Virus record (IMG/VR): IMGVR_UViG_3300016476_000412
Coordinates: 1 to 58,839 of that record
From: a virus
Lineage: Duplodnaviria; Caudoviricetes
Strand: one strand, 5' to 3'
Length of the DNA: 58,839 nucleotides
A model generated the notes under the pieces. It saw only the letters and a program-made list of their open reading frames with translations, did not search any database and had not been told where the DNA came from. Numbering within the stretch: the stretch's first letter is position 1; each line of letters begins with the position of its first letter. Position numbers and translations under genes: made by a program. Shown here piece by piece: positions 1 to 28,019 of this stretch.

Positions 1-18
1 GAGGTCAGTCAGTATCTG

Positions 19-210
19 ATGGCTGGCCCAGAGGGCTGGCCGGAACTTGTCCGTAGGATGTCCAAGCGGACTGAACTGGAGCGCGACCTCGCCTCTCTCC
101 GCCGGGCTGTCTACCAGTATCAGGGCTGTGTCGAGACCGACACGGTGCCCCACTTCACCTCTCACTACGAGATGACCTCGGCCCTTAACCGGATGCGGAA
201 GTATGGGTAA
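19..210 (+). CDS. Small early protein, possibly 5'-truncated by the window edge
   Basis: 63-aa ORF; the frame is open back to position 1; ends SALNRMRKYG (shared C-terminal motif). Confidence 0.6.
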   Translation: MAGPEGWPELVRRMSKRTELERDLASLRRAVYQYQGCVETDTVPHFTSHYEMTSALNRMRKYG

Positions 211-276
211 TGTCGAAACCGGGGATTGCTCCCCGGTCTGTCGTGGTTGGCTACCACGACACTGATGAGACAAGCC
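211..276 (+). ncRNA. Type II hammerhead ribozyme with loop I pseudoknot
   Basis: TGTC(211-214)/GACA(269-272) stem II; GAAA 215-218; stem III CCGGGGA/TCCCCGG; GUC cleavage triplet 236-238; stem I TGTCGTGGT/ACCACGACA; CTGATGA core 262-268; loop GGCT(249-252) complementary to AGCC(273-276). Confidence 0.93.
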
Positions 277-301
277 TCAACTTCAACACACAGGAAACAC
301 A

Positions 302-1294
302 ATGCGTCCTTCCCTTCTCTCTGACACCCTCATGTCCCTGATCCAGATCGGCCGTCCGGTCGTCATCGAGGGTGCACCGGGTGGTGGCAAGACCTCCCTT
401 GTCCGGTCCGTCGCTGCTGCCATGGGTCTGGGCTACATCGAGCGGCACTTGCCCACCATGCTGGTCGAGGACTTCGGCATCCCTGTCTTGGGGGGTGACA
501 CCCTGCGCTACGTCGTGCCGGACTGGTTCCCTGCCAAGGGGTCCAAGTATGACGACGGCATCGGTGGGGTGCTGTGCTTCGACGACCGGAACCAAGCCAA
601 CGCTGACCTCCAGAAGGTGCTGGCTAACATCCAAGAAGCCCGCAATCTCCACGGGGTGCCGATGGCTGATGGCTGGTCTGTCGTCTCCACTGGTAACAGG
701 CAGCAGGATCGTGCCGGGGCTAACCGTGTCCTGTCACACCTCGCTGACCGTGAGACCACCCTTGAGTGGGAGACCCACCTTGATGACTGGTCGTCGTGGG
801 CACTGACCAACGGGGTCCGACCCGAGGTCGTGGCCTTCATCCGCTTCCGTCCCGGTCTGCTCCATGACTTCGACCCGAACCGCAACAAGAACTCCACCCC
901 TCGTTCGTGGACCAACGGTGTCAGCGCCGTCCTTGGCACGGTCCCTGTCGAGGCTGAGTTCGACTGCTTCAAGGGTGCCGTCGGTGAGGGGGCTGCCGCG
1001 GAGTTCATCGGCTTCCTGAAAATCTACCGGAAGCTGCCCAACCCGGATGCTATCCTGATGACCCCTGACACGGCGGATGTCCCGACCGATCCGGCCACCC
1101 TCTATGCCCTGTCTGGTGCTATCGCCACCCGTATCTCCAACGCCAACATTGACCGGGCAATTACGTATCTTAAGCGTATACCAGCAGAGTTCTCTGTGCT
1201 ATGTATGAGCATGGCGGTGCGCCGCGACCCTATGGTGACGTCCACTAAGGGCTTCATCGACTGGAGCGTGGCCCACCAGAGCGTGTTGTTCTAA
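302..1294 (+). CDS. MoxR/CbbQ-like AAA+ ATPase
   Basis: Walker A GAPGGGKT, Walker B-like VLCFDDRNQ, sensor-1 STGN, LADR Arg finger, TPRSW sensor-2. Confidence 0.88.
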   Translation: MRPSLLSDTLMSLIQIGRPVVIEGAPGGGKTSLVRSVAAAMGLGYIERHLPTMLVEDFGIPVLGGDTLRYVVPDWFPAKGSKYDDGIGGVLCFDDRNQANADLQKVLANIQEARNLHGVPMADGWSVVSTGNRQQDRAGANRVLSHLADRETTLEWETHLDDWSSWALTNGVRPEVVAFIRFRPGLLHDFDPNRNKNSTPRSWTNGVSAVLGTVPVEAEFDCFKGAVGEGAAAEFIGFLKIYRKLPNPDAILMTPDTADVPTDPATLYALSGAIATRISNANIDRAITYLKRIPAEFSVLCMSMAVRRDPMVTSTKGFIDWSVAHQSVLF

Positions 1295-1305
1295 GAGGAA
1301 CTGAT

Positions 1306-1917
1306 ATGACCAGACGCATCGACATTTCCGGCCAGCGGTTCGGGAGGTTCACAGTATTAGGCCACGACACTGGCAAGAAGTGGCGGTGCGTCTGTGACTG
1401 CGGCACGGAAGTGGTTGTGGATAAGCAATCCTTACTGTCAGGGAGGAGTAAGTCCTGTGGCTGCTACCGAAGGGAGCACACAATCTCCGTGAGCACCAAG
1501 CATGGCATGACTGGCAAACCCGTGCACCATACGTGGAAGGGTATGCACCAGCGGTGCTACAACCCCAACGCCGGTAGTTACAAAGACTACGGAGCGAAGG
1601 GTGTGACTGTCTGTGAGCGGTGGCATAAATTCGAGAACTTCTACGCTGACATGGGCGACAAGCCCGATGGTTATTCCATAGACCGCATCGACCCGACTGG
1701 TAACTACGAGCCGAGTAACTGCCGGTGGGCCAGCAAGAAGGTGCAGTCCCGGAATAAGCGCAACAGTATACTGATCGACGGGGTGGCGCTCCGCTACCTC
1801 GCCGAAGAACTGAACATACCCTACACCACACTCTACGGCCGCATATGGAGGGCGAAGCAGCGGGCCGAAGAGGAAGGGACTAGGCTACCCACAACCACAC
1901 AGGGGGCGAAGGGATGA
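1306..1917 (+). CDS. Free-standing HNH (homing-type) endonuclease
   Basis: N-terminal GQRFGRFTV..WRCVCDCG..SKSCGC; RCYNPN..YG..GVTVCERW..F..F..DMG; SIDRIDPTGNYEPSNCRWA..Q.RN; C-terminal HTH-like segment. Confidence 0.85.
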   Translation: MTRRIDISGQRFGRFTVLGHDTGKKWRCVCDCGTEVVVDKQSLLSGRSKSCGCYRREHTISVSTKHGMTGKPVHHTWKGMHQRCYNPNAGSYKDYGAKGVTVCERWHKFENFYADMGDKPDGYSIDRIDPTGNYEPSNCRWASKKVQSRNKRNSILIDGVALRYLAEELNIPYTTLYGRIWRAKQRAEEEGTRLPTTTQGAKG

Positions 1918-2141
1918 CAGGCACCTTTGCCGGGTATCTAATCAAGATCAAGACCATCGACGGTTTTGGCGAGTTGGGCCGTCTGTCGAAGGAGTGGACG
2001 GAGTATCGGGACAGTCGTGACTGGACTGCCAAGATGCTCTCGTTCACGGACTATCTCAAACACAAGTTCCCTGAGCAGGCGATGGTCTACAAAACCTACT
2101 GTCGCCTGACTTCCTACCAACCAACCAACAAGGACACATGA
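1914..2141 (+). CDS. Hypothetical small early protein
   Basis: 75 aa, ATGA overlap with the HNH gene; contains VYKTYCRLTS motif. Confidence 0.7.
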   Translation: MTGTFAGYLIKIKTIDGFGELGRLSKEWTEYRDSRDWTAKMLSFTDYLKHKFPEQAMVYKTYCRLTSYQPTNKDT

Positions 2142-2142
2142 C

Positions 2143-3000
2143 ATGACCACACATCTCTCCGACCGCGCCCTGCTGGTGCAACTCAACATCTCCCAGTGGA
2201 CAGCCCGCAAGCTGGACAAGAAGGCCACCAAGGAGGTGGCTTACAGCAACGGCGCTGCCCGTGAGGCAGGGAACTACAACAAGAAGCTGTTGCCCATGTC
2301 GGACAGCCTCGCCAACATCCACACCATGACGGGCGACATCCGTCGGGAGTTCTATGCCAACACCCTGCCGTGGGGACTGGAGAACACCCACATGCTGCCG
2401 ACCGCGAACTACCTCAACTTCATGACCACCTTCCGCAAGCGGAAGTCGGAGTGGCAGGCTGTGGTGAACAAGTTCCTCACTGACTATCCCTACCTCCAGA
2501 CCAACGCTCAGCGGTTCCTCGGCAAGCTCTACGATCCGGCCGACTATCCCGATGTCAACGACCTGCGGCACAAGTTCAACATGGACCTCGTGGTCATGCC
2601 CGTCCCGACCAATGACTTCCGTGTCCAGCTTGCCGATGATGAACTGTCCACCATCCACGCTGACATCCAGCGCCGGGTCGAACAGTCGTCCGGTCTGGCT
2701 ATGAAAGAGGCTTGGCAGCGCCTTTACGACCATGTTAAGTTGATGTCCGAGCGGCTGGGTAACATGGAGGGTCGGCTCTATGACAGCCTGTTCGACAACG
2801 CCATCGAACTGTGCCGCATCCTGCCGCGCCTCAACTTCACCGATGACCCCCACCTTGAAGCGATGCGGACCGAGGTGGAGACCAAGCTGGTGGGTCACAG
2901 CAAGGAAGCTATCAAGGGCAGCCCGGTGCTTCGCAAACAGGTGGCTGACGAGGCTGCCGACATCATGGCCCGTATGGGTGCTTTCATGGGAGGGGTGTGA
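2143..3000 (+). CDS. Conserved helical phage protein (DUF3150-like)
   Basis: 285 aa with SD and strong codon bias; resembles proteins usually found beside MoxR AAA/VWA pairs; family call from memory. Confidence 0.55.
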   Translation: MTTHLSDRALLVQLNISQWTARKLDKKATKEVAYSNGAAREAGNYNKKLLPMSDSLANIHTMTGDIRREFYANTLPWGLENTHMLPTANYLNFMTTFRKRKSEWQAVVNKFLTDYPYLQTNAQRFLGKLYDPADYPDVNDLRHKFNMDLVVMPVPTNDFRVQLADDELSTIHADIQRRVEQSSGLAMKEAWQRLYDHVKLMSERLGNMEGRLYDSLFDNAIELCRILPRLNFTDDPHLEAMRTEVETKLVGHSKEAIKGSPVLRKQVADEAADIMARMGAFMGGV

Positions 3001-3746: not shown

Positions 3747-4874
3747 ATGCAGTCCATGGAAACCCTCAAGACCCGCCTCGCCAAGGCCAAGACCAGCCTC
3801 GTGCTGGAGCACCCCTTCGTCGGCACCATCGCTCTGGGTATGCCGCACACCTACTCCGACGCCGTGCCCACCGCTGCCACCAATGGCAAACGTGTGCTCT
3901 ACAATCCCAAGTTCGTGTCCGATCTGACCGACGAGGAACTCAAGTTCCTTGTGGCCCACGAGTGTATGCACCCCATGCTGGAGCATAACTTCCGCCGTCA
4001 GTCCCGCGAACCCAAGAAGTGGAACATGGCTGCCGACTATGTCATCAACCAGCTTCTGACTGACGAGGGCATCGGCAAGTTCATCGAAGGCGGCTGCCTC
4101 AACAAGGCGCTCTACGACGCCGGACAGGGTGTGTCCGAGCAAATCTACACCCTGCTGCCCGATCAGGACGGCGACGGTGAGGGCAACGGTCCCGGCGGCA
4201 CTGGTCAGGACCTTGAGGACGGCGAAGGCACCGCCTCTGAGCAGGCTGCACAGGCTGCCGAGTGGAAGGTCAAGGTGGCGCAGGCTGCACAGGCTGCCAA
4301 GATGATGGGTAAACTGTCGGCTGGCATGGCCCGCCTTGTCGATGACATCCTCAACCCCACCGTGGACTGGCGTGATGTGCTCATGCGCTTCGTCGTCAAG
4401 CACAAGACCGATGACCGCAGCTTCTCCCGCCCCAACCGTCGCTTCCTGTCGCAGGGCCTCTACATGCCGAGCCGCAGCGGGGAACGGATGGGTCCGATTG
4501 CCTTCCTCGTGGACTGCTCCGGCTCTGTCGATGACGAGCAGCTTGCCCAGATGGCAGCCGAGGTTCGCATGGTGCACGAGGACTTGCATCCTGAGAAGTT
4601 GCACGTCGTATACTTCGACGCCGAGGTCACGCACTACGACTGCTTCCTGCCGGATGACACTGTGCAGATCAGCTTCCACGGTGGCGGTGGCACCGATGTC
4701 CGTGCTGCCTTCGACTACCTCGATGCGCAGGGTATCTCCGAGACGCTGGCTTGCACCATCGTGCTGACCGACGGCTACACCCCCTACCCCGACGGGTTCA
4801 ACACCCCGGTGATCTGGGCCATGACCACTGACATGAACGCCCCGTTCGGTGAGCACTGCCGGGTCAAGGTGTGA
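3747..4874 (+). CDS. Putative metallopeptidase plus VWA-like domain protein (DUF2201-like)
   Basis: TAATNG, HExxH (AHECMH), WNMAADYVIN; C-terminal MIDAS DCSGS, GGGGTD, VLTDGY. Confidence 0.88.
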   Translation: MQSMETLKTRLAKAKTSLVLEHPFVGTIALGMPHTYSDAVPTAATNGKRVLYNPKFVSDLTDEELKFLVAHECMHPMLEHNFRRQSREPKKWNMAADYVINQLLTDEGIGKFIEGGCLNKALYDAGQGVSEQIYTLLPDQDGDGEGNGPGGTGQDLEDGEGTASEQAAQAAEWKVKVAQAAQAAKMMGKLSAGMARLVDDILNPTVDWRDVLMRFVVKHKTDDRSFSRPNRRFLSQGLYMPSRSGERMGPIAFLVDCSGSVDDEQLAQMAAEVRMVHEDLHPEKLHVVYFDAEVTHYDCFLPDDTVQISFHGGGGTDVRAAFDYLDAQGISETLACTIVLTDGYTPYPDGFNTPVIWAMTTDMNAPFGEHCRVKV

Positions 4875-17559: not shown

Positions 17560-20433
17560 ATGGATACAGCAGAATTTCTGGGTAGGGTTCTGCCCGACGA
17601 TGGGCATTATGTAGCAACTGTTATCAACCCGGATCGTCGCGCACAGAAATTTTATAACAGCATCGAGGCTCTGGCCAACGCTGTTATACGGATCGACATC
17701 GCAGGTGGTAACGTCTACTACGCAATGTCGTCGTTCCGCGACACGTCAAGTCGCAAACAGATCAACGTCCACAGGACCAAGGCCCTATTCATCGACGTGG
17801 ACTGCGGTGAGGACAAGCCCTTCGCCGACCAGAAGGAGGGAGCCAAGGCCCTCCGCGCCTTCCTCAAAACCAGTGGTATGCCCGCCCCGATGATCGTGTC
17901 GTCCGGTCGCGGCCTTCACGTCTACTGGCCGATGACCGAAGCGCTGGAGCCTGCGGACTGGCAGCCTCTGGCCGACGCCCTCAAGACTTGCGCCAAGCAC
18001 CACGGGTTCCAGATCGACCCCAGCGTGACGGCAGACAGCGCCCGTGTGCTGCGCCCGGTCGGCACCCACAACCCCAAGAACGGGGCCGAGGTCGCGCTTC
18101 TCAAGGACAGCCCTGACTACGACCCCGACCACCTGCGTGACGTGCTGACCAGCTTCATCGGTGCGGCCCCCTCGGTGCCCTCGGCTGCGCCCCGGGGTTT
18201 CGCCGCGCAGGCGGGTGTGTCCCGGGTCACAGCGGCCCTGTCGTCGGGACAGGAGTACGCCCCGGCCAATGGCGTGAACATCGTCAACGGGTGCAACCAG
18301 ATCGCGTGGGGTGTGAACAACCAAGGCGAGGTCGAGGAACCCTTCTGGTACGCCATGCTGGGTGTCGCCGCCTTCTGCGATGACCCGGAGGGGACCGCGG
18401 TCATGTGGTCCGACCAGCACCCCGAGTATGATTACTCCCGCACTGTCGTGAAGATGGAGCAGTGGCGGCGGCAGTCGACCGGACCCTCTACCTGCAAGCG
18501 CTTCAAGGACCTGCGCAGCAATGGATGCCGTGGCTGCATCTTTCACAACAAGATCACCAGCCCGGCCCAGATCGGGCGGCAGTTCGCTGCGGCAGAGGGT
18601 CCGGCCGAGGATGTGCTGGACGAGGTCGGTAAGGAAGTGCCGGTCCCTGCTGGGTACAAGCGCATGGCAAAGGGCGGCATCGCGCAGGATGTGGAAGGCA
18701 CCGACATCGAGGTGTCTCCGTTCGACCTCTACCCCGTGGGCTATGGGCGCGACGAAGCGCTGGGCTACGAGGTGGTGCGCTACCACTGGAAGCGCCCGCA
18801 CAAGGGCTGGCAGGAACTCAAGTTCCGGCAGGCGTATCTCGCCGACGGCAACCGGGAGTTCCCCACCGCAATCGCCGACCAAGGGATCGTCCTTCACCAC
18901 AAGGTCATGACCGAGAGGTTTCAGATGATGCTCCGCTCCTACATGGATGAACTCCGCAAACTCAAGACCACCACGAACCTCTACACCGCCCTCGGGTGGA
19001 AGGAGAACAACACCATCTTCGTCATCGGCGATAAGCAGGTGCGCAAGGATGAGACTGGCAAGGTCGTGACTGAGGATGTGGTGCTGTCGTCGGCGGTCCA
19101 GCGCCTCGGCTCCCACATGCACGGGGTCAAGGGCAGCCACGAGAAGTGGCTCAAGATCACCAAGCTGATGGAACTGGCCGGGCTGAACGCCCACAAGTTC
19201 GCGCTGGGTGTGGCTATGTCCGCGCCGCTCTACCAGTTCACCGGCCTCAAGGGTGCGGTGCTGTCGCTCTACGGACCGACCGGCAGTGGCAAGACCCTCG
19301 CGCAGTTGGCGATGCAGTCCATCTGGGGCGACCCGACCGAGTTGCACTTCCAGTCGAAGTATACCCAGAACGCCCTGTTCACCCGCTTGGCCTTCTACAA
19401 CAACCTCCCCATGACCATCGACGAGACGACCATGATGCCCGACAAGGAGGTCGGGGACTTCATCTATGGCGTCACGCAGGGCCGGGACAAGAGCCGCCTC
19501 AACGCGAAGATCGAGGAACGCGACCCCCGGACATGGGCGGCACCTGTCACCCTGTCCACGAACCGGCCGATGGGCGGCAAGCTGCTGGCCGCATCCTTCG
19601 AGACCGATGCGCAGATGGCGCGGATGCTGGAACTGTCACTCGAAGCGTCGGACATCTTCTCCAAGAACACTGACACCGGACGCAGGTTCTACGATACCGT
19701 CACCCGCAACTACGGTCACGTCGGCAGCTTCATCCTGCCGTGGCTGGTGGACATGGGCGAGGATGCCATCAACAAGATGATCGCCGACCACCGGGCGGCG
19801 TTCGAGAAGCGGTATAACATCCGCTTCACCGGGGAGGAACGCTACTGGGAGAACCTCATCATCCTCGCTGACCTGATGAACAAGGTCGCCACGCAGAGCG
19901 GGTGGGTGGACTACAAGTACCGTGAGGCGACGGAGTTCGCACTGGCCCATGCCGGGATGACGCGCCGCAGCATCGCCACCACCAAGGTGGATGAGTTCGA
20001 CATCCTGTCGGAATACCTGAACGAGATGTCGGATGCGACCGTGGTGATGATGCACACCGACAATGGCAACGACCATTACGAGCCGACCCGTCTGCCACGG
20101 GGTGAGGTGCGGGTGCGCTTCGATCTGTACCGCAAGACCATCCGTGATGACTTCGACCGTGGTATCCTGCTGGTGGATCGGACCCACCTGCGCCGCTGGA
20201 TGTCCAGCAAAGGCGGCGACTTCAAGCGGTTCTCCGACATACTTGCGCACGACAACGCCGACGCCACGCCCTCATCGAAGAAGGCCATGCTCGGGCGGGG
20301 GACAGAACTGCGCCTGCCGCAGGTCTATGTGCTGGGCATCAACCTCAACCACGAGCGCCTCAGAGACCTGCTCAACAACCGGGATGACCGGGTGGAAAGC
20401 CTGACTCTGGGGCAACTCAAGGCCGTGCGCTAG
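17560..20433 (+). CDS. Primase-helicase (AEP-like primase plus DUF927-type P-loop helicase)
   Basis: FIDVD, SGRGLHVYW, RVLRPVGT; Cys cluster; Walker A GPTGSGKT, Walker B TIDE. Confidence 0.88.
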   Translation: MDTAEFLGRVLPDDGHYVATVINPDRRAQKFYNSIEALANAVIRIDIAGGNVYYAMSSFRDTSSRKQINVHRTKALFIDVDCGEDKPFADQKEGAKALRAFLKTSGMPAPMIVSSGRGLHVYWPMTEALEPADWQPLADALKTCAKHHGFQIDPSVTADSARVLRPVGTHNPKNGAEVALLKDSPDYDPDHLRDVLTSFIGAAPSVPSAAPRGFAAQAGVSRVTAALSSGQEYAPANGVNIVNGCNQIAWGVNNQGEVEEPFWYAMLGVAAFCDDPEGTAVMWSDQHPEYDYSRTVVKMEQWRRQSTGPSTCKRFKDLRSNGCRGCIFHNKITSPAQIGRQFAAAEGPAEDVLDEVGKEVPVPAGYKRMAKGGIAQDVEGTDIEVSPFDLYPVGYGRDEALGYEVVRYHWKRPHKGWQELKFRQAYLADGNREFPTAIADQGIVLHHKVMTERFQMMLRSYMDELRKLKTTTNLYTALGWKENNTIFVIGDKQVRKDETGKVVTEDVVLSSAVQRLGSHMHGVKGSHEKWLKITKLMELAGLNAHKFALGVAMSAPLYQFTGLKGAVLSLYGPTGSGKTLAQLAMQSIWGDPTELHFQSKYTQNALFTRLAFYNNLPMTIDETTMMPDKEVGDFIYGVTQGRDKSRLNAKIEERDPRTWAAPVTLSTNRPMGGKLLAASFETDAQMARMLELSLEASDIFSKNTDTGRRFYDTVTRNYGHVGSFILPWLVDMGEDAINKMIADHRAAFEKRYNIRFTGEERYWENLIILADLMNKVATQSGWVDYKYREATEFALAHAGMTRRSIATTKVDEFDILSEYLNEMSDATVVMMHTDNGNDHYEPTRLPRGEVRVRFDLYRKTIRDDFDRGILLVDRTHLRRWMSSKGGDFKRFSDILAHDNADATPSSKKAMLGRGTELRLPQVYVLGINLNHERLRDLLNNRDDRVESLTLGQLKAVR

Positions 20434-23400
20434 TTCGAGGTCAACAGGTCGACCATCGTTTGCAGATCGCGCTCGGCGGCATCGGGGGCGGACTTCAAGG
20501 TCCGCTCAATCGCCGGGCGGCGGGCTTCCTTGAGCGCTCTCTGGGAGTTCTTCACGAAGTTCCGCACCTCCAGCGCCGTGCCCGCCGACGCAGCGTTCCA
20601 GTCCTCCACGGCTGCCTCAATCTCCCGGGCACGGGCGCGGTCGTTGCGCATCATCGCTTTGATCCACGCCGTGCGGAACCCGGTCGACACCTCTCGCTGG
20701 TAGTCCGTCATCCGCTTGGCTGACCGGATCATCTCGTACTGCTTGGCAGCCTCGGCCGGATAGAAGCCCAGCGCCCGGGCCAGCACAGTACCCGCCGTCA
20801 TCTGATCGGACACGACATAACCGCGTCGGTCCACGACGGCCCCGTTCTGGAGGTAGGCGTAGGTGTCACCGACGGCGCGGGCCATCGTGATCGGCGCTTC
20901 CCGCAGCACATCTTCCATGGAAGTCGTGGTGGAGAACGGCGCAGCGGCAAGGTCCGCAGCGAACTTGGCAGTGCCGATCAGCATCGACGGCGCGGGGCCG
21001 AAGATTTGTCCCAGCGACCGGGCCGGGTCGGACCCAGCCAGCAGGATGTCGGTGCCCGGCAGCAGATCACCCAGCGAGGTGCGCCCTGCCACGTCGGCGG
21101 GGACGTACTCGTTCACCAGACCCTTGAGCAGCGTGGGCGACATGCCCGGCAGGACGCTGTCGATGAACTTCGCGGTCTCGTAGCGCGCACCCTGCCACCC
21201 GGCGATCTTGAGGCGCTGCGCCAGCGTGTCGGCCAAGTCCTCCAAGTCCTCGGCGAAGGGCAGACCAGCGATGCCACTGAGCAGGACGATCCCGGCGATC
21301 ATGCCGATCTTCCCGTTGCGCGACAGGTTGGCGAACATCTGCACAGAGGTGGTCGGGAACACCTTGTACATGTACATGAAGGACTGGATGCCCGAGCGCC
21401 ACGCAGGCGGGCGGTTCAGGACCGAGTATTCCCCCATGGTGTACTGCAGCGCCTTGACCGCGAAGGCCCGGGCGGCGGCGTCAGCCTCAGCCTCAGAGGC
21501 ACCAGCGGCCACCTTGCGCGCGAACTCCAGTCGGTAGGAGGCGAGGCCCAGCGTCCGGCGGCTGGCCTGCTCCGTGACGTTGAAGGTCCACATCCACCCG
21601 TCGAGGAACTTCTGCTGCCATCCCTGCGTGGTGCGGCCCCGGGCGGTGCCCACCAGTGCGTTGGACTGCGCCGGGATCATGGCCCCGTCACGGATTTCCT
21701 GCGCGATGAAGGCAGCCTCGCGGGCATTGATCCCGAAGCGCTTCTGCATGGCAGGGTCAGCCGCGATCTGGTCGTAGAACTCGGCGGTGTTGGCCTCACG
21801 GCTGGTGATCCCCGGTGCACCGACGTGTTTACCTGCAAGGGACATCTCTGCCACAACGCTGCCGACCGAGAACCCGCCACCGAAGGCGGTCTTGGGGTTG
21901 TAGCTGGCGAGGTAGGGCACCCCGTTCGTGACCAGCGACAGCAGGTTCAGCGCACCCGTGGCGATGGAGCCGCCCAGTTGCATCATGGAGGTGGCAGCAC
22001 GGATGCGCGACACCAGCGGGCCAGACCCGAAGTCCGACTCGTCCACGTTCTTGTTCCCGTCGAGGAACGCCACGGTGCTGGCTGCCTCGTTGTAGAACTG
22101 GTTGCCCCGGCGCGGCTGACCATTGCCCGGGTTGGTCTGGTTGTACATGTAGGCGTACTGCTCGTAGGCCCTCTGCGCGTCGGCCACCTTCTCGCGGGTT
22201 GCGGTCGGGTCAGCAGCCAGCTTTTCGGCGCGCTCTTTCAGTTTGCGCAGTGCCTCGGCGTCACCGTTCCACAGCCGGTTGGTCGACTCCATGCTGCGGT
22301 CCATCAGTTCCGCCAGTCGCGGGCGCATCAGCACCTTGGCGATGGTAGAGGCCCGGCTCTCGATATGGCGCATGGTCGCCATGACGCCATCCATCTTCGC
22401 ACCGGGGGTGAAGGAACGCTCCAGCCGGTTGCGGGCGTTGCTGTTCTGCCGGGTCAGGGCGACGATCACGTCCTCCATCTTCTCCGGCGTCAGCGTGATG
22501 TCGAACTGGCGAAGGCCACGGATGAACTCATTGAGGTTCAGTTCCGGCGGCGCGGCAATGGCGTCGAGGGCGCGCTCGGACACGGCGCGCAGTTGCACCT
22601 TCTGCAGCCGGTACTGCCCGGCGTCTTGGTCATAGGCCATGACCTCGAACTCGGTGTTCCCGAACATGTCGTTCGTCTTCTGCACAGCTTCCATGGATTC
22701 GGAGGCGCTGTCGAACTGGGAGTAGACCAACTGCTCCCGGTAGCTGTCCTGCAGCCGGACGATCTTGTTCCCGACGAAGGCTTCCACCCGCATCTGGAAC
22801 TTCCCCTCGCGGAGGATCGGGGTGTAGCCCGTGGCGATGGTGCGCTTGGTGAACTTGTCAGCGTCCTTGCTGGCGAGTTCTGACAGGATGACCTGCTTGA
22901 CCTTGTTCTGAACCACATAGCGGTCCTCGCCCAGCCGCATCCGCGACTTGAACGCCTCCAGCTTGGCGATCAGGTCGTCAGCCATCTGGGCTTCCATGGC
23001 GGCGGGCAGAGTCCGGCGCGTCTTGCCGTCCTTGGTCAGGAACACCCGCTCGTCGACCAGCAGTTGACGCAGGGTGTCGAAGCGGTCCGACTTCTCCCCG
23101 ATCAGCGCAGCGTTGGCGGTGCGCAGGATGTCGTTGGCGTAGGTCTGGTAGTCGTTGTCGAGCACTGCGCGACCGGTCGCGTCCTGCGTGACGTTCGAGG
23201 TGTAGAGGCTGCCATAGGTCTGCGAGAGCGTGGTCATCGCCTCGCGCTCGGCCTCGCTCAACTCCCCGTCCGGCACCGTGGCTGCGATCTGGCGGAACGC
23301 AAGGTCGCGCTCCTGCAGTGCACCTTCGTAGCGGGCGCGCAGGAGTTCGAGTTCGATGTCATCCATCGCCTCGCGGATTTTGACGTAACCCTTCCACTCG

Positions 23401-26400
23401 ATGCTGTCCTCGGTCAGGCCCTTGATACCGGCGAACTTCTCCTTCTTCGTGACGGTCTGCCCCGCCTCGTCGAAGGTCACGTCGTATTCGAACCCGTCGC
23501 GCATCTCCTCGAAGCTGCGCTGTCCAATCTGCCGCAGGCGCGTGATCTCGGCGGTGTTCTTGACCAGCTTGCCGTCCACCATGGTGAACAGTGGGACGTT
23601 GCCGAGGTCATCCATGGTGCGTGTCTTAGCCACCGCCGCGCGCTGCCCAGCGTAGAGCATCTCGTTGATCGTGGCCGTCTGCTTGTCCGAGATGCCGCCG
23701 ACCTCACCCGCGATGGCGCGGTTCAGCACAAGGCGCAGCCGCTCGTTGTAGCTGACCTTGAGGGACATGGAGATGTTGCGGGTCTCGTCGATCAGTTCTT
23801 CCAGCGCAGCAAGGCCCGGGTTCTGCCGGGCGCGGAAGTTGGCGAGACTGAGGAACTTCGACTTGAACTCGTCCCACGTCGTGGTGGAGTTCACACCCTG
23901 CCCGCGCAGGTACTTCCATCCTTCCTCGATGCTCATCGGCAGTCCACCGATGGAGTCCCGCAGCAGCCCAGCCGCCGTGTTCACGTCGCGGAAGGACTGC
24001 GGGGTAGAGAAGCGCCCCGTGTCGCCCAGCGACTCCACAGCATGGAGCCGGGCACCGATGGCCTGCGCGTCAAAGGTGACGCCACCTTTTCCCCGCGCGT
24101 AGCGCCGTGCCTGATCCAGCAGGTAGCGGGTCATCTCGTCACCAGTGCGGATACCCAGCGCGTTGACGAAGCCCTTGATGGCGTTCCAGACCTTGGCGAC
24201 GACGCTGGTCTCCAGCGCGGCGGCATAGTCAGACAGGTATTCTTCCACGGCTTCTGCGCGCCCGAGGCGCGGGTTGGCAGCCATGGCAGCATCGACCGCC
24301 CGCTGGATGCGGGACTCGCCTTTGTAGAGCGTCTCCATCAGAGCGTCGAACTTCGGACCGGGCATGATGCCACGCAGGCCGAAGTGACCCAGCGTTTCGT
24401 GGGCGAGGACGAAGCGCAGCTGCTGCTCCGTCACGATGCGGTCAGTGAAGATCACGACCTGATCGCCGTCGAAGGCGTAGCCCATGGCCGGTGCCGTGTC
24501 GAAGTCGCCCTGTGGACGGGCTGCCACAGCCCGGGCATAGAGGTCCGGGTAGCGCGCCTTGAGGTCCGCTTGGCTGCGGACGACGGTGATCTTGGGGGCA
24601 CGGGCCAACTTTGTCGCAAACGTGCGCACCAGAAGCTGGATGCGGCCGGGTGCGATGGGCGAGACCGGGTTGCCGTCCAGATCGACGACGTTCGACACGG
24701 TGTTCGGATCAGCCAGTGCGAAGGCACCACGGGGGGTAAGCGTACCACGCTGCCAGTTCGGCTCATTGCGCTCGTTGACGTAGGACAGCAGGGGGGCGTT
24801 ACCGCGCACTGCGGTCTTGCCCTCATCACCGAGGCGCTTCACCTCGATGGCAGTCTCGCGGAACTTGGTCATGAACCCAGACGGCAGGTTGTCGCGGTTG
24901 GCGGCGTACTCGTCGAGCATAGCGTTCAAGCGGGTGATGGCGCTCTCGCCACCCACCTCGCTGTTCAGTTCGTCGGCGGCGTCCGTCACTTCTTCGACGG
25001 TGCCTGCGTCCTTGAATTTCAGGTACAGTTCGTCGGCCAGCGCACGATCTTCCTCGGGCAGGCTCTCCATGTACTTGACTGCGGCGCGGCGCTGGGCGCG
25101 CATCGCGGCTGCCAGTTCTGGGTCGGTGTCGCGCAGGCCGGTAGCACGCTGGCGCGACATGCGCGCGAGTTCAAACAACGCCGAGTCGCGGGCGAAGGTA
25201 TCCCCGTCTGCCACGGCCTGCTGCACATCAGCCACGAGTTCATCGACCTCGGCCACCATCGTGGTGGTCAGGTCAACTTTGGCCGCAGCCACGCGCTGGG
25301 CTTCGGTCTCAGCGCGTTTGATCGCGTCTTCCCGGGTGACGACCTCCCGGGTCTGCGCCGCCGTCGGCGCGGCGCGTTCTGCTGCCTGCTGGGCAGCGAC
25401 CTCCTCGGGGGACCGGCGCGCGGTCTTGGCGCGGGTGCCGCCCTCGGTCGTATCCAGTGCGGCTTCGGTCATAGCCTGACGGGCGGCAGCCACTTCGCCC
25501 GTCGCGGTACGGGCACCAGTGACCTCGGGCACCCCCTCGGCCCGAGGCTGTCCCTTGCCGCGCTGGACCTTGGCCTGCTGCGGTGCGGGGGCTTTCGTTG
25601 TGCCCTTGGTCTGGACCTTGGCCTTACCCGCTGGCGTGGTCGGCGCAGGCTCCGGCGCGATCAGCGCGCTGAATTTGGTCAGACGCTCCTGTACCTGCGC
25701 CGGGTCCTGCAGAGCAGAGCCGTTGAGGTAGGGGTTGTCCGCTTTGCGGAACGCCTTCCCGATTTTCGTCCACTCCTCATCAGTGCGGGCACCAAGCCAG
25801 TCAGTGTAGTCGGCAATGGTATCGCCCAGCCCAGACCGCAGGTCGGTGCTGCCGCCACGGGTGTACGCCTCCAAGAACGACCGCACCTCCGGGAGCTTGC
25901 TGGCTTCCGGGTAAGGTGCCAGCCGCCGCTCGACTTCCGCCTGCTGCTCTTGCTGGTAAGCCTCCTGTTCCGCTTTCTTCGCGGCTTCCGCGGCAGCCTT
26001 CTTCTGCGCCTTGGTGAGAGGCTTCGGCTTGGGGGCTGTCACGTCAGCCACGTTGGGCAGCGGCCCGGTGGGGGTCTGCGGTGCCGGAGCGGTCGGCACA
26101 GGAGCGGGCGGCTGAGTAACGACTTGCTCGATAGGGCGCGGAGCCGCAGGGCCACGGCGCAACGGCGCAGCCGCAGGTGCAACGGGTGCAGCAGGGGCAG
26201 CCACGGGTGCCGGGGCAACAGCAGCGGGAGCAGGAGCGGCAGGAGCGGCAGGAGCGGCAGGAGCGGCAGGAGCGGCAGGAGCCGCCTCGGGCGCGGGGGC
26301 GCGCTGATCTGCACGCAGCAGCATTGCCCCGGGCCGAGCCTCAACCACGGGAGCCATCTGTGCAACAGTGGGCACTTCCCCGACGCGCTGGCGCTGGGTC

Positions 26401-28019
26401 AGCAGCAGTTGCCCGGGGCGACCACGAGCGGCTTCGCCCGCCGGGTTCCGCATCTCGGGGGTCAGCAGCAGCTGTCCCATGGGTGTGGTGGCTGCAGGAG
26501 CGGCAGGAGCGGCAGGCGCAGCCGGAGCCACGCGCTGATCGGGGCGAAGCTGCATCGGACCGAGTGCCGTTTCCCATCCGGTGGCAAGACCAGCTTCCGA
26601 CGGGTTGAGTTGCGGCACTGCCGGACCGAGTGCGTTGTTCGCACGCCAGTTGGCCTCCAGTGCAGCTTCTTCGGGCGACAGGTTGGCGACGACCGGCCCG
26701 AGTCCGATGTCTGTGGGGGCTGCCTTCTCGGCGACCTGCGTGGCCGCAGTGTCGGTCAGGTCCACCGGCTTCGTGGTATCCACCGGGGGCTTTGCCTTCG
26801 GCGTGCCGGGGGTGGACTGGAAGTTGGCAGCCGTGCCCATACCGCCGCCGAGGATCGCGCCGACACCGGCTGCGATCAGGTACTGCTCACCATAGGTCTC
26901 GGCCAGATAGGGGGCCAGCGCCTTCCAATCCTCCGCAGAGAACTGCTCGCGTGCCGTCGGATCGAACAGCGCAGTCTCGCCCAGCGTCTGCATGGTCTCG
27001 GTCAGGGCTTCACCAAAGCCCGTCTTGATCCCGCCGGTCAGCCCGTTGCGCAGCGCGCTGCGCGCCGCCTTCTTGCCCGCTTCTTCCACAGTGGTGCGCA
27101 GGGCGCGCGAGATGATTTTGCCCGACGCTGCCGAGATACCGAAGGCATCCAGTGCTGTGTTGGCGAGTGCGCCACCGAGAATCTCGGTCTTGGTCTCGGG
27201 GTCGTTGGGATCGAAGCCGTTCCGCACCGCAGCGTCGTAGTAGCTGCTGACGTGCATCGGGAACGTGGAGACTGCGCCGCCAGCCGTGGCAGCAGCGCGG
27301 ACCCCAGCCGCACCTGCGCCGAGTGCGCGTGCCCCCAGACCGGCGACACCGCCGGACAGGACAACTGAGGCAACAGTCGGCACCGCCTGCCACGCGCCGT
27401 CGATGATCTTCTCCATCAGCGTGCTGTTCTGGGCGATCAGGGACGAGCGCACCTGCTCATCTTCGGTCTGCCCGAACACACCCTTGGCGAAGTCGCGGAC
27501 TGCGGGTCCAGCCTCCGACGCCCCGGCAAATTCCATGAGCGTGCCGACACCACCGATGGTGCCCTCGGCCACTTGCCGGACACCAAGACCCAGCAGTTCA
27601 CCCACGCCGCGCCGCGCCGACAGCGACCTGATGTAGTTGCCGTAGGACGAAGCGGGAAGCGGTACCCACCCAGACCCTTCCGGGGCTTTGGTGTTCGGGG
27701 TCTGTAGGGTCTCAATCGCAGAGCGCGCGTCAGTGGCGGCGAAGATGCGGTCGCCCGCATACATCTCGTTGGTGGCCTGATTGAAGTAAGCCGGTGCCGT
27801 CCAAGTGTCAGCCTGCGGTGCCTTGAGTCGCTGCGCCGCTTCCATGGCGTACTGACCGGGAACGTACTCCGTCCCGCCCACCAAGGGATCGGCCTGCGTG
27901 CTCTGCAGTGCGCCAAGACCCATGCGCGTGGCCGGGTTCCCCGCAACCGGAGAACCGGGGACGGTCAGACCAAGACCCATCGAGCGGCCAATGGTGCTTT
28001 CGGGGAAGCCGTCAGCCAT
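20430..28019 (-). CDS. Giant internal virion/ejection (polyvalent) protein with zincin-like domain
   Basis: 2529 aa, last gene of the structural arm; HETLGH..EAVEE motif; hydrophobic Gly/Ala segments; Ala/Pro linkers. Confidence 0.78.
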   Translation of the reverse strand: MADGFPESTIGRSMGLGLTVPGSPVAGNPATRMGLGALQSTQADPLVGGTEYVPGQYAMEAAQRLKAPQADTWTAPAYFNQATNEMYAGDRIFAATDARSAIETLQTPNTKAPEGSGWVPLPASSYGNYIRSLSARRGVGELLGLGVRQVAEGTIGGVGTLMEFAGASEAGPAVRDFAKGVFGQTEDEQVRSSLIAQNSTLMEKIIDGAWQAVPTVASVVLSGGVAGLGARALGAGAAGVRAAATAGGAVSTFPMHVSSYYDAAVRNGFDPNDPETKTEILGGALANTALDAFGISAASGKIISRALRTTVEEAGKKAARSALRNGLTGGIKTGFGEALTETMQTLGETALFDPTAREQFSAEDWKALAPYLAETYGEQYLIAAGVGAILGGGMGTAANFQSTPGTPKAKPPVDTTKPVDLTDTAATQVAEKAAPTDIGLGPVVANLSPEEAALEANWRANNALGPAVPQLNPSEAGLATGWETALGPMQLRPDQRVAPAAPAAPAAPAATTPMGQLLLTPEMRNPAGEAARGRPGQLLLTQRQRVGEVPTVAQMAPVVEARPGAMLLRADQRAPAPEAAPAAPAAPAAPAAPAAPAPAAVAPAPVAAPAAPVAPAAAPLRRGPAAPRPIEQVVTQPPAPVPTAPAPQTPTGPLPNVADVTAPKPKPLTKAQKKAAAEAAKKAEQEAYQQEQQAEVERRLAPYPEASKLPEVRSFLEAYTRGGSTDLRSGLGDTIADYTDWLGARTDEEWTKIGKAFRKADNPYLNGSALQDPAQVQERLTKFSALIAPEPAPTTPAGKAKVQTKGTTKAPAPQQAKVQRGKGQPRAEGVPEVTGARTATGEVAAARQAMTEAALDTTEGGTRAKTARRSPEEVAAQQAAERAAPTAAQTREVVTREDAIKRAETEAQRVAAAKVDLTTTMVAEVDELVADVQQAVADGDTFARDSALFELARMSRQRATGLRDTDPELAAAMRAQRRAAVKYMESLPEEDRALADELYLKFKDAGTVEEVTDAADELNSEVGGESAITRLNAMLDEYAANRDNLPSGFMTKFRETAIEVKRLGDEGKTAVRGNAPLLSYVNERNEPNWQRGTLTPRGAFALADPNTVSNVVDLDGNPVSPIAPGRIQLLVRTFATKLARAPKITVVRSQADLKARYPDLYARAVAARPQGDFDTAPAMGYAFDGDQVVIFTDRIVTEQQLRFVLAHETLGHFGLRGIMPGPKFDALMETLYKGESRIQRAVDAAMAANPRLGRAEAVEEYLSDYAAALETSVVAKVWNAIKGFVNALGIRTGDEMTRYLLDQARRYARGKGGVTFDAQAIGARLHAVESLGDTGRFSTPQSFRDVNTAAGLLRDSIGGLPMSIEEGWKYLRGQGVNSTTTWDEFKSKFLSLANFRARQNPGLAALEELIDETRNISMSLKVSYNERLRLVLNRAIAGEVGGISDKQTATINEMLYAGQRAAVAKTRTMDDLGNVPLFTMVDGKLVKNTAEITRLRQIGQRSFEEMRDGFEYDVTFDEAGQTVTKKEKFAGIKGLTEDSIEWKGYVKIREAMDDIELELLRARYEGALQERDLAFRQIAATVPDGELSEAEREAMTTLSQTYGSLYTSNVTQDATGRAVLDNDYQTYANDILRTANAALIGEKSDRFDTLRQLLVDERVFLTKDGKTRRTLPAAMEAQMADDLIAKLEAFKSRMRLGEDRYVVQNKVKQVILSELASKDADKFTKRTIATGYTPILREGKFQMRVEAFVGNKIVRLQDSYREQLVYSQFDSASESMEAVQKTNDMFGNTEFEVMAYDQDAGQYRLQKVQLRAVSERALDAIAAPPELNLNEFIRGLRQFDITLTPEKMEDVIVALTRQNSNARNRLERSFTPGAKMDGVMATMRHIESRASTIAKVLMRPRLAELMDRSMESTNRLWNGDAEALRKLKERAEKLAADPTATREKVADAQRAYEQYAYMYNQTNPGNGQPRRGNQFYNEAASTVAFLDGNKNVDESDFGSGPLVSRIRAATSMMQLGGSIATGALNLLSLVTNGVPYLASYNPKTAFGGGFSVGSVVAEMSLAGKHVGAPGITSREANTAEFYDQIAADPAMQKRFGINAREAAFIAQEIRDGAMIPAQSNALVGTARGRTTQGWQQKFLDGWMWTFNVTEQASRRTLGLASYRLEFARKVAAGASEAEADAAARAFAVKALQYTMGEYSVLNRPPAWRSGIQSFMYMYKVFPTTSVQMFANLSRNGKIGMIAGIVLLSGIAGLPFAEDLEDLADTLAQRLKIAGWQGARYETAKFIDSVLPGMSPTLLKGLVNEYVPADVAGRTSLGDLLPGTDILLAGSDPARSLGQIFGPAPSMLIGTAKFAADLAAAPFSTTTSMEDVLREAPITMARAVGDTYAYLQNGAVVDRRGYVVSDQMTAGTVLARALGFYPAEAAKQYEMIRSAKRMTDYQREVSTGFRTAWIKAMMRNDRARAREIEAAVEDWNAASAGTALEVRNFVKNSQRALKEARRPAIERTLKSAPDAAERDLQTMVDLLTSN
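26230..26283. repeat. 9-bp minisatellite (GCAGGAGCG) x5 plus one variant, encoding (APA)n
   Basis: Perfect tandem copies read directly; a shorter array lies at about 26494-26520. Confidence 0.9.

Follow-up and report, generated by a model that had tools for sequence, protein, structure and literature searches.

The IMG/VR virus record IMGVR_UViG_3300016476_000412, a stretch of 58,839 nucleotides (nt) that was analysed over its whole length and is referred to here as the window, begins with the end of one gene, which is followed after a short gap by the gene of a MoxR-like AAA+ ATPase on the same strand. What fills this gap, and what would it do to a message that runs through it? On inspection of the sequence, positions 211–276 of the + strand hold every core nucleotide of a type II hammerhead ribozyme, together with three stems and a pseudoknot of 4 base pairs (bp) between loop I and the 3′ tail. 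The element is very probably a real, selected hammerhead that cleaves, the cleavage itself being predicted. The best explanation overall, to which we assign a probability of roughly 0.6, is a self-cleaving type II hammerhead that processes a polycistronic message ahead of an ATPase/VWA gene block. The parts of the motif are the following:

211–214, + strand: stem II, 5′ strand UGUC, pairing with 269–272; C214 is C11.1
215–217, + strand: core G12 A13 A14 (GAA), placed by sequence and Rfam alignment, without variation in alignments A1 and A2
218–237, + strand: stem III hairpin (218–224 with 231–237, loop 225–230); the pair A15.1–U16.1 is A218–U237
238, + strand: C17, the cleavage-site nucleotide by its position in the Rfam alignment; predicted cut between C238 and U239
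239–261, + strand: stem I hairpin (239–246 with 254–261, loop 247–253, UUGGCUA)
249–252, + strand: pseudoknot, loop I side GGCU, pairing with 273–276
262–268, + strand: core C3 U4 G5 A6 U7 G8 A9 (CUGAUGA), without variation in A1 and A2
269–272, + strand: stem II, 3′ strand GACA, pairing with 211–214; G269 is G10.1
273–276, + strand: pseudoknot, 3′-tail side AGCC, a word also found in the Rfam consensus

In the 5′ to 3′ direction, the 5′ strand of stem II is followed by GAAA, the stem III hairpin, C17, the stem I hairpin, CUGAUGA and the 3′ strand of stem II. Stem I and stem III are each capped by a loop and stem II is open, which is the type II permutation, and the core-closing pair G10.1–C11.1 (G269–C214) is present in all 24 distinct rows of the alignment described below. 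All 13 positions of the catalytic core are invariant across 13 ATPase-linked copies. C238 is presumably the cleavage-site nucleotide C17, an assignment for which the numbering is taken from established hammerhead knowledge. The core, the three stems and the GGCU/AGCC pseudoknot had been located in a preliminary description of this DNA, and the sequence bears out each of them.

The Rfam covariance model of the type II family (RF02276, Hammerhead_II) matches the element over model positions 1–66 of 66 with a score of 34.7 bits, corresponding to E values of 8.2e-6 (local scan), 0.0025 (all 4227 families searched with the whole window) and 6e-7 (this family by itself). The same search returned no match in 14 control genomes. 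The curated gathering cut-off of the family is 37 bits, an operational criterion and not a defining feature, and because the score lies below it a default Rfam scan of the window is empty. The window, at its full 58,839 bases, contains a single hammerhead copy, and a permissive Rfam scan found no other ribozyme in it; the sole other match was to a plant snoRNA model (E 0.64). The bare core pattern also occurs once in the window, but it was dropped as a test of significance because 18 of 100 shuffles contain at least one match. Thermodynamic folding of the 70-nt RNA gave −32.4 kcal/mol (z = −4.87), a value that none of 200 shuffles attained, and stems I and III are both present in the minimum-energy structure.

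Covariation was assessed on a model-based alignment (A3, 24 distinct rows), which was used in place of a MAFFT alignment (A1) because the latter misaligned stem III in 3 of its 13 sequences. Standard pairs occupy 97.7% of the 515 cells, compared with a shuffle mean of 68.9%, and the observed value was reached in 0 of 500 shuffles; when the partners are slid by 1–3 columns, 34–42% of the cells pair. Compensatory changes, with both sides altered, were found in 17 of the 23 pairs. They include all 8 pairs of stem I (100% of cells paired) and 5 of the 7 pairs of stem III (99.4%). The three inner pairs of stem II are kept in 24/24 rows, and its outermost U–A pair in 13/24. The pseudoknot pair C251–G274 is C–G in 14 rows and U–A in 4, so that GGCU/AGCC is replaced by GGUU/AACC. 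A wider set parsed by script holds 96 distinct ribozymes, 72 of which carry an exact 4-nt loop I complement of the tail, with 11 different tail words. G–U or U–G pairs account for 23 of the 515 cells, and since these would be C–A mismatches on the other strand, the structure under selection is that of the + strand RNA. With the full-length Rfam match, relatives that score above the cut-off and covariation in both the stems and the pseudoknot, the proposal of a complete pseudoknotted type II hammerhead is upheld.

The element recurs in front of related ATPase genes. ATPase relatives were confirmed in 192 cases in IMG/VR, and 80 loci were retained; a search model built from 10 ATPase-linked copies was applied to the window and these 80 loci (540,865 bases), with loci L182–L201 left out of the model search. 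It gave 36 matches, namely 35 in 32 of the 80 loci plus the window copy, all of them placed upstream of the MoxR-like AAA ATPase gene and in its orientation. The hammerhead immediately precedes the ATPase start in 23 of the 80 loci, and in five loci with an ATPase identity of 64–66% (L054, L055, L076, L044, L048) an open reading frame (ORF) of 62–63 amino acids (aa) stands between the ribozyme and the ATPase gene. RF02276 itself detects 7 copies above the cut-off in 6 of 20 related loci (37.8–43.9 bits). Six of these lie just before the ATPase gene or its preceding small ORF, and the seventh is a second, upstream copy in L031, which, like L004 and L005, carries two copies.

The subtype is much broader than this operon. 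Its exact pattern is found in at least 120 IMG/VR stretches, with 107 distinct sequences among the matches listed, and the model yields 155 matches in 100 of the pattern-matching loci, 5 of which fell outside the 150-row alignment and were excluded from the context counts. The genes that follow these ribozymes are diverse: there are 129 distinct downstream ORFs, most without a Pfam family, 20 of which encode AAA_5 ATPases (those of the ATPase-seeded loci and three others) and one an ArdA homologue. Dense same-strand arrays occur in other phage contigs, with 10 ribozymes in L160 (4611 bases), 6 in L152 and 5 in L161, at about one ribozyme per small gene and placed before the gene. A variant hammerhead was also observed before the same ATPase gene, in L019 (2915–2981), L029 (2905–2971, equal to L030) and L050 (2909–2980). 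Its stem II reads GGCC/GGCC, a pseudoknot between loop I and the tail is missing, and the 3′ tail complements the catalytic core (CUGAUG/CAUCAG in L050, CUGACG/CGUCAG in L019, one compensatory change). From its sequence, this tail could form an alternative hairpin that hides the core, an anecdotal observation with three distinct examples only.

The genes around the window copy, and the leader that joins it to the ATPase, are as follows:

1–210, + strand: 3′ end of the upstream gene, its last 69 codons with the stop TAA at 208–210; homologous to genes of ~286–313 codons in relatives
277–301, + strand: ATPase leader of 25 nt, with a purine-rich ribosome-binding site AGGAA at 292–296; GGAG or GGAA is equally spaced in relatives
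302–1294, + strand: MoxR-like AAA+ ATPase of 330 aa (Pfam AAA_5, E 1.5e-5; ~30% identity to phage 'MoxR-like ATPase' genes)
3747–4874, + strand: DUF2201_N metallopeptidase-like plus VWA-like (DUF2201) protein (Pfam E 2.7e-51 and 1.8e-20)

The ribozyme fills the gap between the stop codon and the ribosome-binding site of the ATPase, and both flanking genes are on the + strand. In agreement with the preliminary description, it starts directly after the TAA and ends 25 nt before the ATG of the AAA gene at 302. That description had also treated the upstream frame ('ORF19') as an ORF of its own; it is instead the C-terminal 69 codons of a gene of ~286 aa that is cut by the start of the record, and its product is 56% identical over 70 aa to the complete gene in L002 (2051..2911). 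The fragment has no Pfam family. Downstream, the ATPase is the first gene of the unit, and the DUF2201_N/VWA-like gene, the usual partner of MoxR ATPases, lies in the same co-directional block.

This tight placement is general. A same-strand frame has its stop −3 to +15 nt from the first ribozyme base in all 36 ATPase-linked copies. In the broader collection of 136 distinct ribozymes (186 matches minus rows identical within ±40 nt or less than 200 nt from a locus end), a frame of at least 50 codons reaches its stop within −8 to +5 nt in 109 cases, compared with 165 of 2720 (6%) random positions on the same loci and strand. An ORF of at least 50 aa begins within 120 nt downstream of 132 of the 136, with a median gap of 21 nt, a figure obtained with a longest-ORF rule that may at times choose an in-frame ATG a few codons early.

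Could such spacing make the cleavage conditional? A ribosome terminating at 208–210 would cover stem II and part of stem III, so that the ribozyme might act as a switch that links expression of the ATPase operon with the translation of the gene upstream; a core-hiding alternative pairing is a second form of the same idea. The stop lies within −8 to +5 nt in 105 of the 129 copies with an upstream frame, 42 of which overlap; the minimum-energy pairing of 266–269 with 276–279 excludes stem II and the pseudoknot; and in the variant subgroup (L019, L029/L030, L050) the complementarity of the tail to the CUGAUG/CUGACG core is kept by one compensatory change. On the other hand, genome compaction alone would give tight spacing, no ligand- or protein-binding extension is present, and the published type II examples are described as constitutive in cleavage (PMC3088659, PMC8782182). 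We consider a switch distinctly improbable.

Evidence for the processing of a polycistronic message comes from the comparison of the operon across relatives. No promoter-like or terminator-like site, and no T-run terminator, was found in window 1–1400, and because no promoter-like site is present there the ATPase message must originate further upstream. Seventeen ribozymes adjoin the ATPase (16 loci and the window): 10 follow a homologous protein of ~290 aa (25–56% identical to the window fragment), and 7 follow five unrelated groups; no Pfam family was found among the upstream proteins except for a MarR-like protein in L029. Because the upstream genes change while the ATPase remains 66–86% identical across these loci, the ribozyme travels with the downstream operon. 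A sister clade (L020–L027, ~70% ATPase identity) has no ribozyme, and a sigma-70-like promoter is found instead in a non-coding gap of 288 nt. In L026 this strong promoter spans 2931–2959 within the gap 2713–3000 and consists of TTGACA, 17 nt and a TG-extended AATGAT (10/12 matches). In more distant relatives, the upstream gene runs directly into the ATPase start without a ribozyme.

The locus suggests the following sequence of events. A polycistronic transcript would extend from the ~290-aa upstream gene into the MoxR-like AAA ATPase/VWA block, and the ribozyme would fold and cut between C238 and U239 once 269–276, made up of stem II's 3′ strand and the tail, leave the polymerase. The upstream product would end in the stem III hairpin plus UC with a 2′,3′-cyclic phosphate, and the downstream product would carry a 5′-OH at U239, itself paired within the stem I hairpin. 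These termini correspond to those of the hammerhead reaction, 2′,3′-cyclic phosphate and 5′-OH (PMC8782182). Both new ends are expected to bear hairpins because the type II scissile bond sits between the loop-closed stems III and I, and the products should separate because only the 3–4 bp of stem II join them. Given how hammerheads cut and how type II is arranged, a 5′-OH message opening with the stem I hairpin is expected. It would have a defined, hairpin-capped 5′ end 63 nt before the ATPase start codon.

In bacteria, hairpins at the ends of an mRNA protect it. For the ATPase operon, stability and translation would by this means become independent of the variable upstream genes, a job for which the sister-clade promoter would be the equivalent. 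The predicted cleavage role fits its context, since the ribozyme lies on the coding strand, with no promoter or terminator nearby, directly before the ribosome-binding site of the ATPase. As the main role, uncoupling of the ATPase operon from upstream genes has the odds slightly in its favour. Self-cleavage, and with it any effect on mRNA stability or translation, is what we infer from the motif. For hammerheads of bacteria and phages, operon processing is the standard hypothesis and is still unproven (PMC3088659, PMC6765202), and the earlier remark that pseudoknotted type II hammerheads occur in phages and bacteria in a largely unknown role agrees with both papers. Unmasking of the ribosome-binding site by cleavage was considered as a mechanism and found no support; positions 293–296 are predicted to pair only with codons 3–4, independently of cleavage. 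Public RNA runs (n = 3, ~5% of sampled words each) yielded on window 1–3000 contigs of relatives only, none at least 99% alike, and positions 1–400 were uncovered.

Several points weigh against this reading. The fitting of alignment A3 to the model favours the proposed structure. The Rfam check proposed in the preliminary description gave an end-to-end match (E 6e-7), and the score, 34.7 bits, falls 2.3 bits short of the curated 37-bit cut-off. Stem II is missing from the thermodynamic fold, and a predicted UGAG/CUCA hairpin (266–269 with 276–279) would compete with stem II and the pseudoknot; folding is, however, uninformative on stem II, since the junction is held by tertiary contacts and its absence is expected. 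The pseudoknot is limited to 4 bp because of a U248/U277 mismatch, and many relatives can form a fifth pair. In a tested construct, a cut of the pseudoknot from 6 to 4 bp lowered the rate ~20-fold, and an extra base pair in stem II also lowered activity (PMC3088659). The ribosome-binding site is not predicted by folding to be masked before cleavage. The element is dispensable in the sense that distant relatives without a ribozyme couple the genes directly. Finally, the influence of a 5′-OH end on decay varies with the host.

Three observations, namely the Rfam score under the cut-off, the missing stem II of the minimum-energy fold and the appearance of the core words in 18 of 100 window shuffles, would also suit an element that is not a ribozyme at all, with two adjacent hairpins (for instance a terminator, a site for RNase or an element acting at the DNA level) lying between chance core-like words. 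Such hairpins would hardly give a full-length RF02276 match with an E of 6e-7, nor 13 invariant core positions amid stems that change by compensation, a covarying pseudoknot and positional homologues above the cut-off. The lack of a T-run argues against a terminator, and the G–U pairs are the mark of a + strand RNA. We regard this alternative as extremely unlikely.

A structural comparison of related loci reveals exchange between ribozyme copies. Two ribozymes are spaced 498 nt apart in both L004 and L005 (L004:2389–3004), and a 25-nt direct repeat (24/25 identical; L004 2445–2469 and 2980–3004), formed by the 3′ end of the ribozyme, the leader and the ATG, brackets an insert of 535 nt with a 143-aa ORF and the second ribozyme. 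L007 has one ribozyme only (2915–2980), whose stem III is that of the first L004 copy and whose stem I is that of the second. On sequence grounds, this L004/L007 pattern is evidence for recombination between ribozyme copies. It raises the possibility that the ribozyme is chiefly a passenger or a substrate for recombination, that ribozyme-plus-leader units, as short repeats conserved at the gene boundaries of different phages, spread and persist through the insertion, deletion and swapping of cassettes, and that cleavage is tolerated and not selected for this operon. The change of upstream genes around a ribozyme that remains, the presence of the same subtype in at least 120 IMG/VR stretches before very diverse genes, and its absence from some relatives are all consistent with this view. 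A pure passenger would not, however, retain every catalytic nucleotide as well as the pseudoknot despite so many compensatory changes, and the placement is very regular: just past a stop, ~21 nt before a start and on the coding strand only. A predominantly passenger role is rather unlikely in our judgement, and passenger and processing roles do not exclude each other.

The two roles may be combined in a more speculative proposal, which we put forward tentatively as a possibility. The hammerhead and the ribosome-binding leader would form, in this phage group, a portable module that can take the place of a promoter where an operon begins, and the ribozyme ends would double as joints for cassette recombination. 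Evolution would have found three interchangeable solutions for the junction before the ATPase operon, the ribozyme in one case, a promoter of the sigma-70 kind in another and direct coupling of translation in the third; type II would be preferred because it is the only topology that leaves both cleavage products hairpin-capped. If this holds, the module would be an RNA-level counterpart of the promoter-early stem-loop (PeSL) cassettes of T4-type phages, which consist of a promoter and a terminator (Arbiol et al. 2010, PMC2839356). Under this proposal both are short regulatory repeats at gene boundaries that set expression and serve recombination and cassette shuffling; the PeSL acts on DNA and transcription, whereas the ribozyme with its leader would act on RNA. 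A repeat that brackets a variable insert, with a chimeric ribozyme copy, occurs in one clear case among the relatives (L004/L005 versus L007) and was not seen in the window.

To return to processing of the operon message, a functional parallel is the early transcript of phage T7, in which RNase III cuts between genes and leaves 5′-phosphate and 3′-OH ends. In both cases a long phage transcript is, or would be, cut between cistrons at structured sites to give hairpin ends and gene-sized messages. T7 relies on a host enzyme; the ribozyme would cut itself and leave 5′-OH and 2′,3′-cyclic phosphate ends.

Among known hammerheads, the type II class, its loop I/tail pseudoknot and the gene-flanking prophage context were all published in 2011 (PMC3088659). 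According to that paper, the majority of type II members have a pseudoknot of at least 4 bp between loop I and the 3′ tail, the pseudoknot is required for fast cleavage, and gene-flanking hammerheads of prophage transcripts cleave in vitro and in E. coli. The window copy shares with the RF02276 members described there the core, the topology, a short stem II, a pseudoknot of at least 4 bp and the intergenic phage or prophage context, and it differs in its score 2.3 bits under the cut-off, in a pseudoknot at the 4-bp minimum and in being single and not clustered. The clustered prophage hammerheads of the same paper, such as the triple around ardA in Agrobacterium tumefaciens, likewise lie between the cistrons of a polycistronic phage transcript, on its coding strand. 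Gene-bracketing pairs occur in the relatives L004, L005 and L031, other phages with this subtype have arrays (L160, L152), and one downstream gene of the wider set encodes an ArdA homologue. The window has one copy only and no cluster, and in its clade the ribozyme is tied to the MoxR-like ATPase operon. Three type II hammerheads of Desulfovibrio vulgaris cleave in vivo, as reported from cyPhyRNA-seq (PMC8782182). They are of the same type and, as that paper describes, also adjoin hypothetical and phage-like genes; they are chromosomal and belong to a cultured bacterium, in contrast to the window copy, which is carried by an uncultured phage contig. A literature search that paired 'hammerhead ribozyme' with 'MoxR' found nothing, the supplementary lists of PMC3088659 lying outside the search.

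The window copy is a clean but ordinary example of a self-cutting RNA type known since 2011, with cleavage as a prediction. The additions made here are modest: a clade-wide linkage to one operon, a promoter as the alternative in a sister clade, and one clear recombinant ribozyme in relatives. What purpose the thousands of bacterial and phage hammerheads serve biologically is still unproven (PMC6765202). The locus offers a well-controlled natural comparison, with the same ATPase operon headed by a ribozyme, a promoter or direct gene coupling. Because these alternatives precede a constant operon, the proposal that the ribozyme gives the operon its own 5′ end is testable with simple reporters. 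The analysis also indicates that the default Rfam cut-off misses genuine phage copies.

The record itself is a 58.8-kb IMG/VR contig rated complete but 'linear'. Replication genes (DNA polymerase, helicase, primase) occupy the + strand up to ~20 kb, and structural genes lie on the − strand, including those of a portal-like protein, a tail fibre protein and a 2529-aa protein. The ORF of this last protein (20430–28019, − strand) matches phrog_11358, a group of ~3400-residue proteins of unknown function, over its C-terminal 500 residues (E 4.5e-33), and the remainder is unmatched. The nearest cultured phages, by portal identity, are Rhizobium phage RHph_TM3_14A (36%) and Roseobacter phage CRP-2 and Pelagibacter phage HTVC103P (26–28%). 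A search of these three for RF02276 gave no match at E ≤ 0.01, which is not proof of absence. Megablast of window 1–3000 against 50,697 phage records gave no match, and blastn of the 70-nt ribozyme gave only two partial matches of 23 nt (E 0.5); no phage that could serve as a laboratory model emerged from these searches.

A comparison of the two ends of the window with L002 bears on the cut upstream gene. Window 58391–58839 matches L002 1483–1928, and window 1–210 matches the C-terminal end of L002 2051..2911. The window lacks the ~770 nt of L002 between these matches, which comprise a 68-aa ORF and two thirds of the gene from its N-terminal side, and the contig is therefore incomplete at this junction despite a completeness estimate of 100%. 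A second ribozyme upstream of the cut gene, as in L031, may have been present in the absent ~770 nt. Contig L016 ends within ~10 nt of the point at which the record starts. A true genome end or a repeat-induced break was rejected as an account of the record start, as the near-identical L014 and L015 run through it and L002 shows that a gene is cut; the start is treated as an assembly break.

Directly after the ATPase gene lies a gene for an HNH endonuclease (1306–1917; phrog_374, E 1.5e-71), followed by a small ORF (1914–2141). L002 lacks a counterpart of the region ~1296–2127; there the homologue of window 2143–3000 comes directly after the ATPase gene. Judged by sequence, the HNH stretch looks like an inserted free-standing homing endonuclease, and contigs ~92% alike to 1298–1876 are present in aquatic and wastewater runs.

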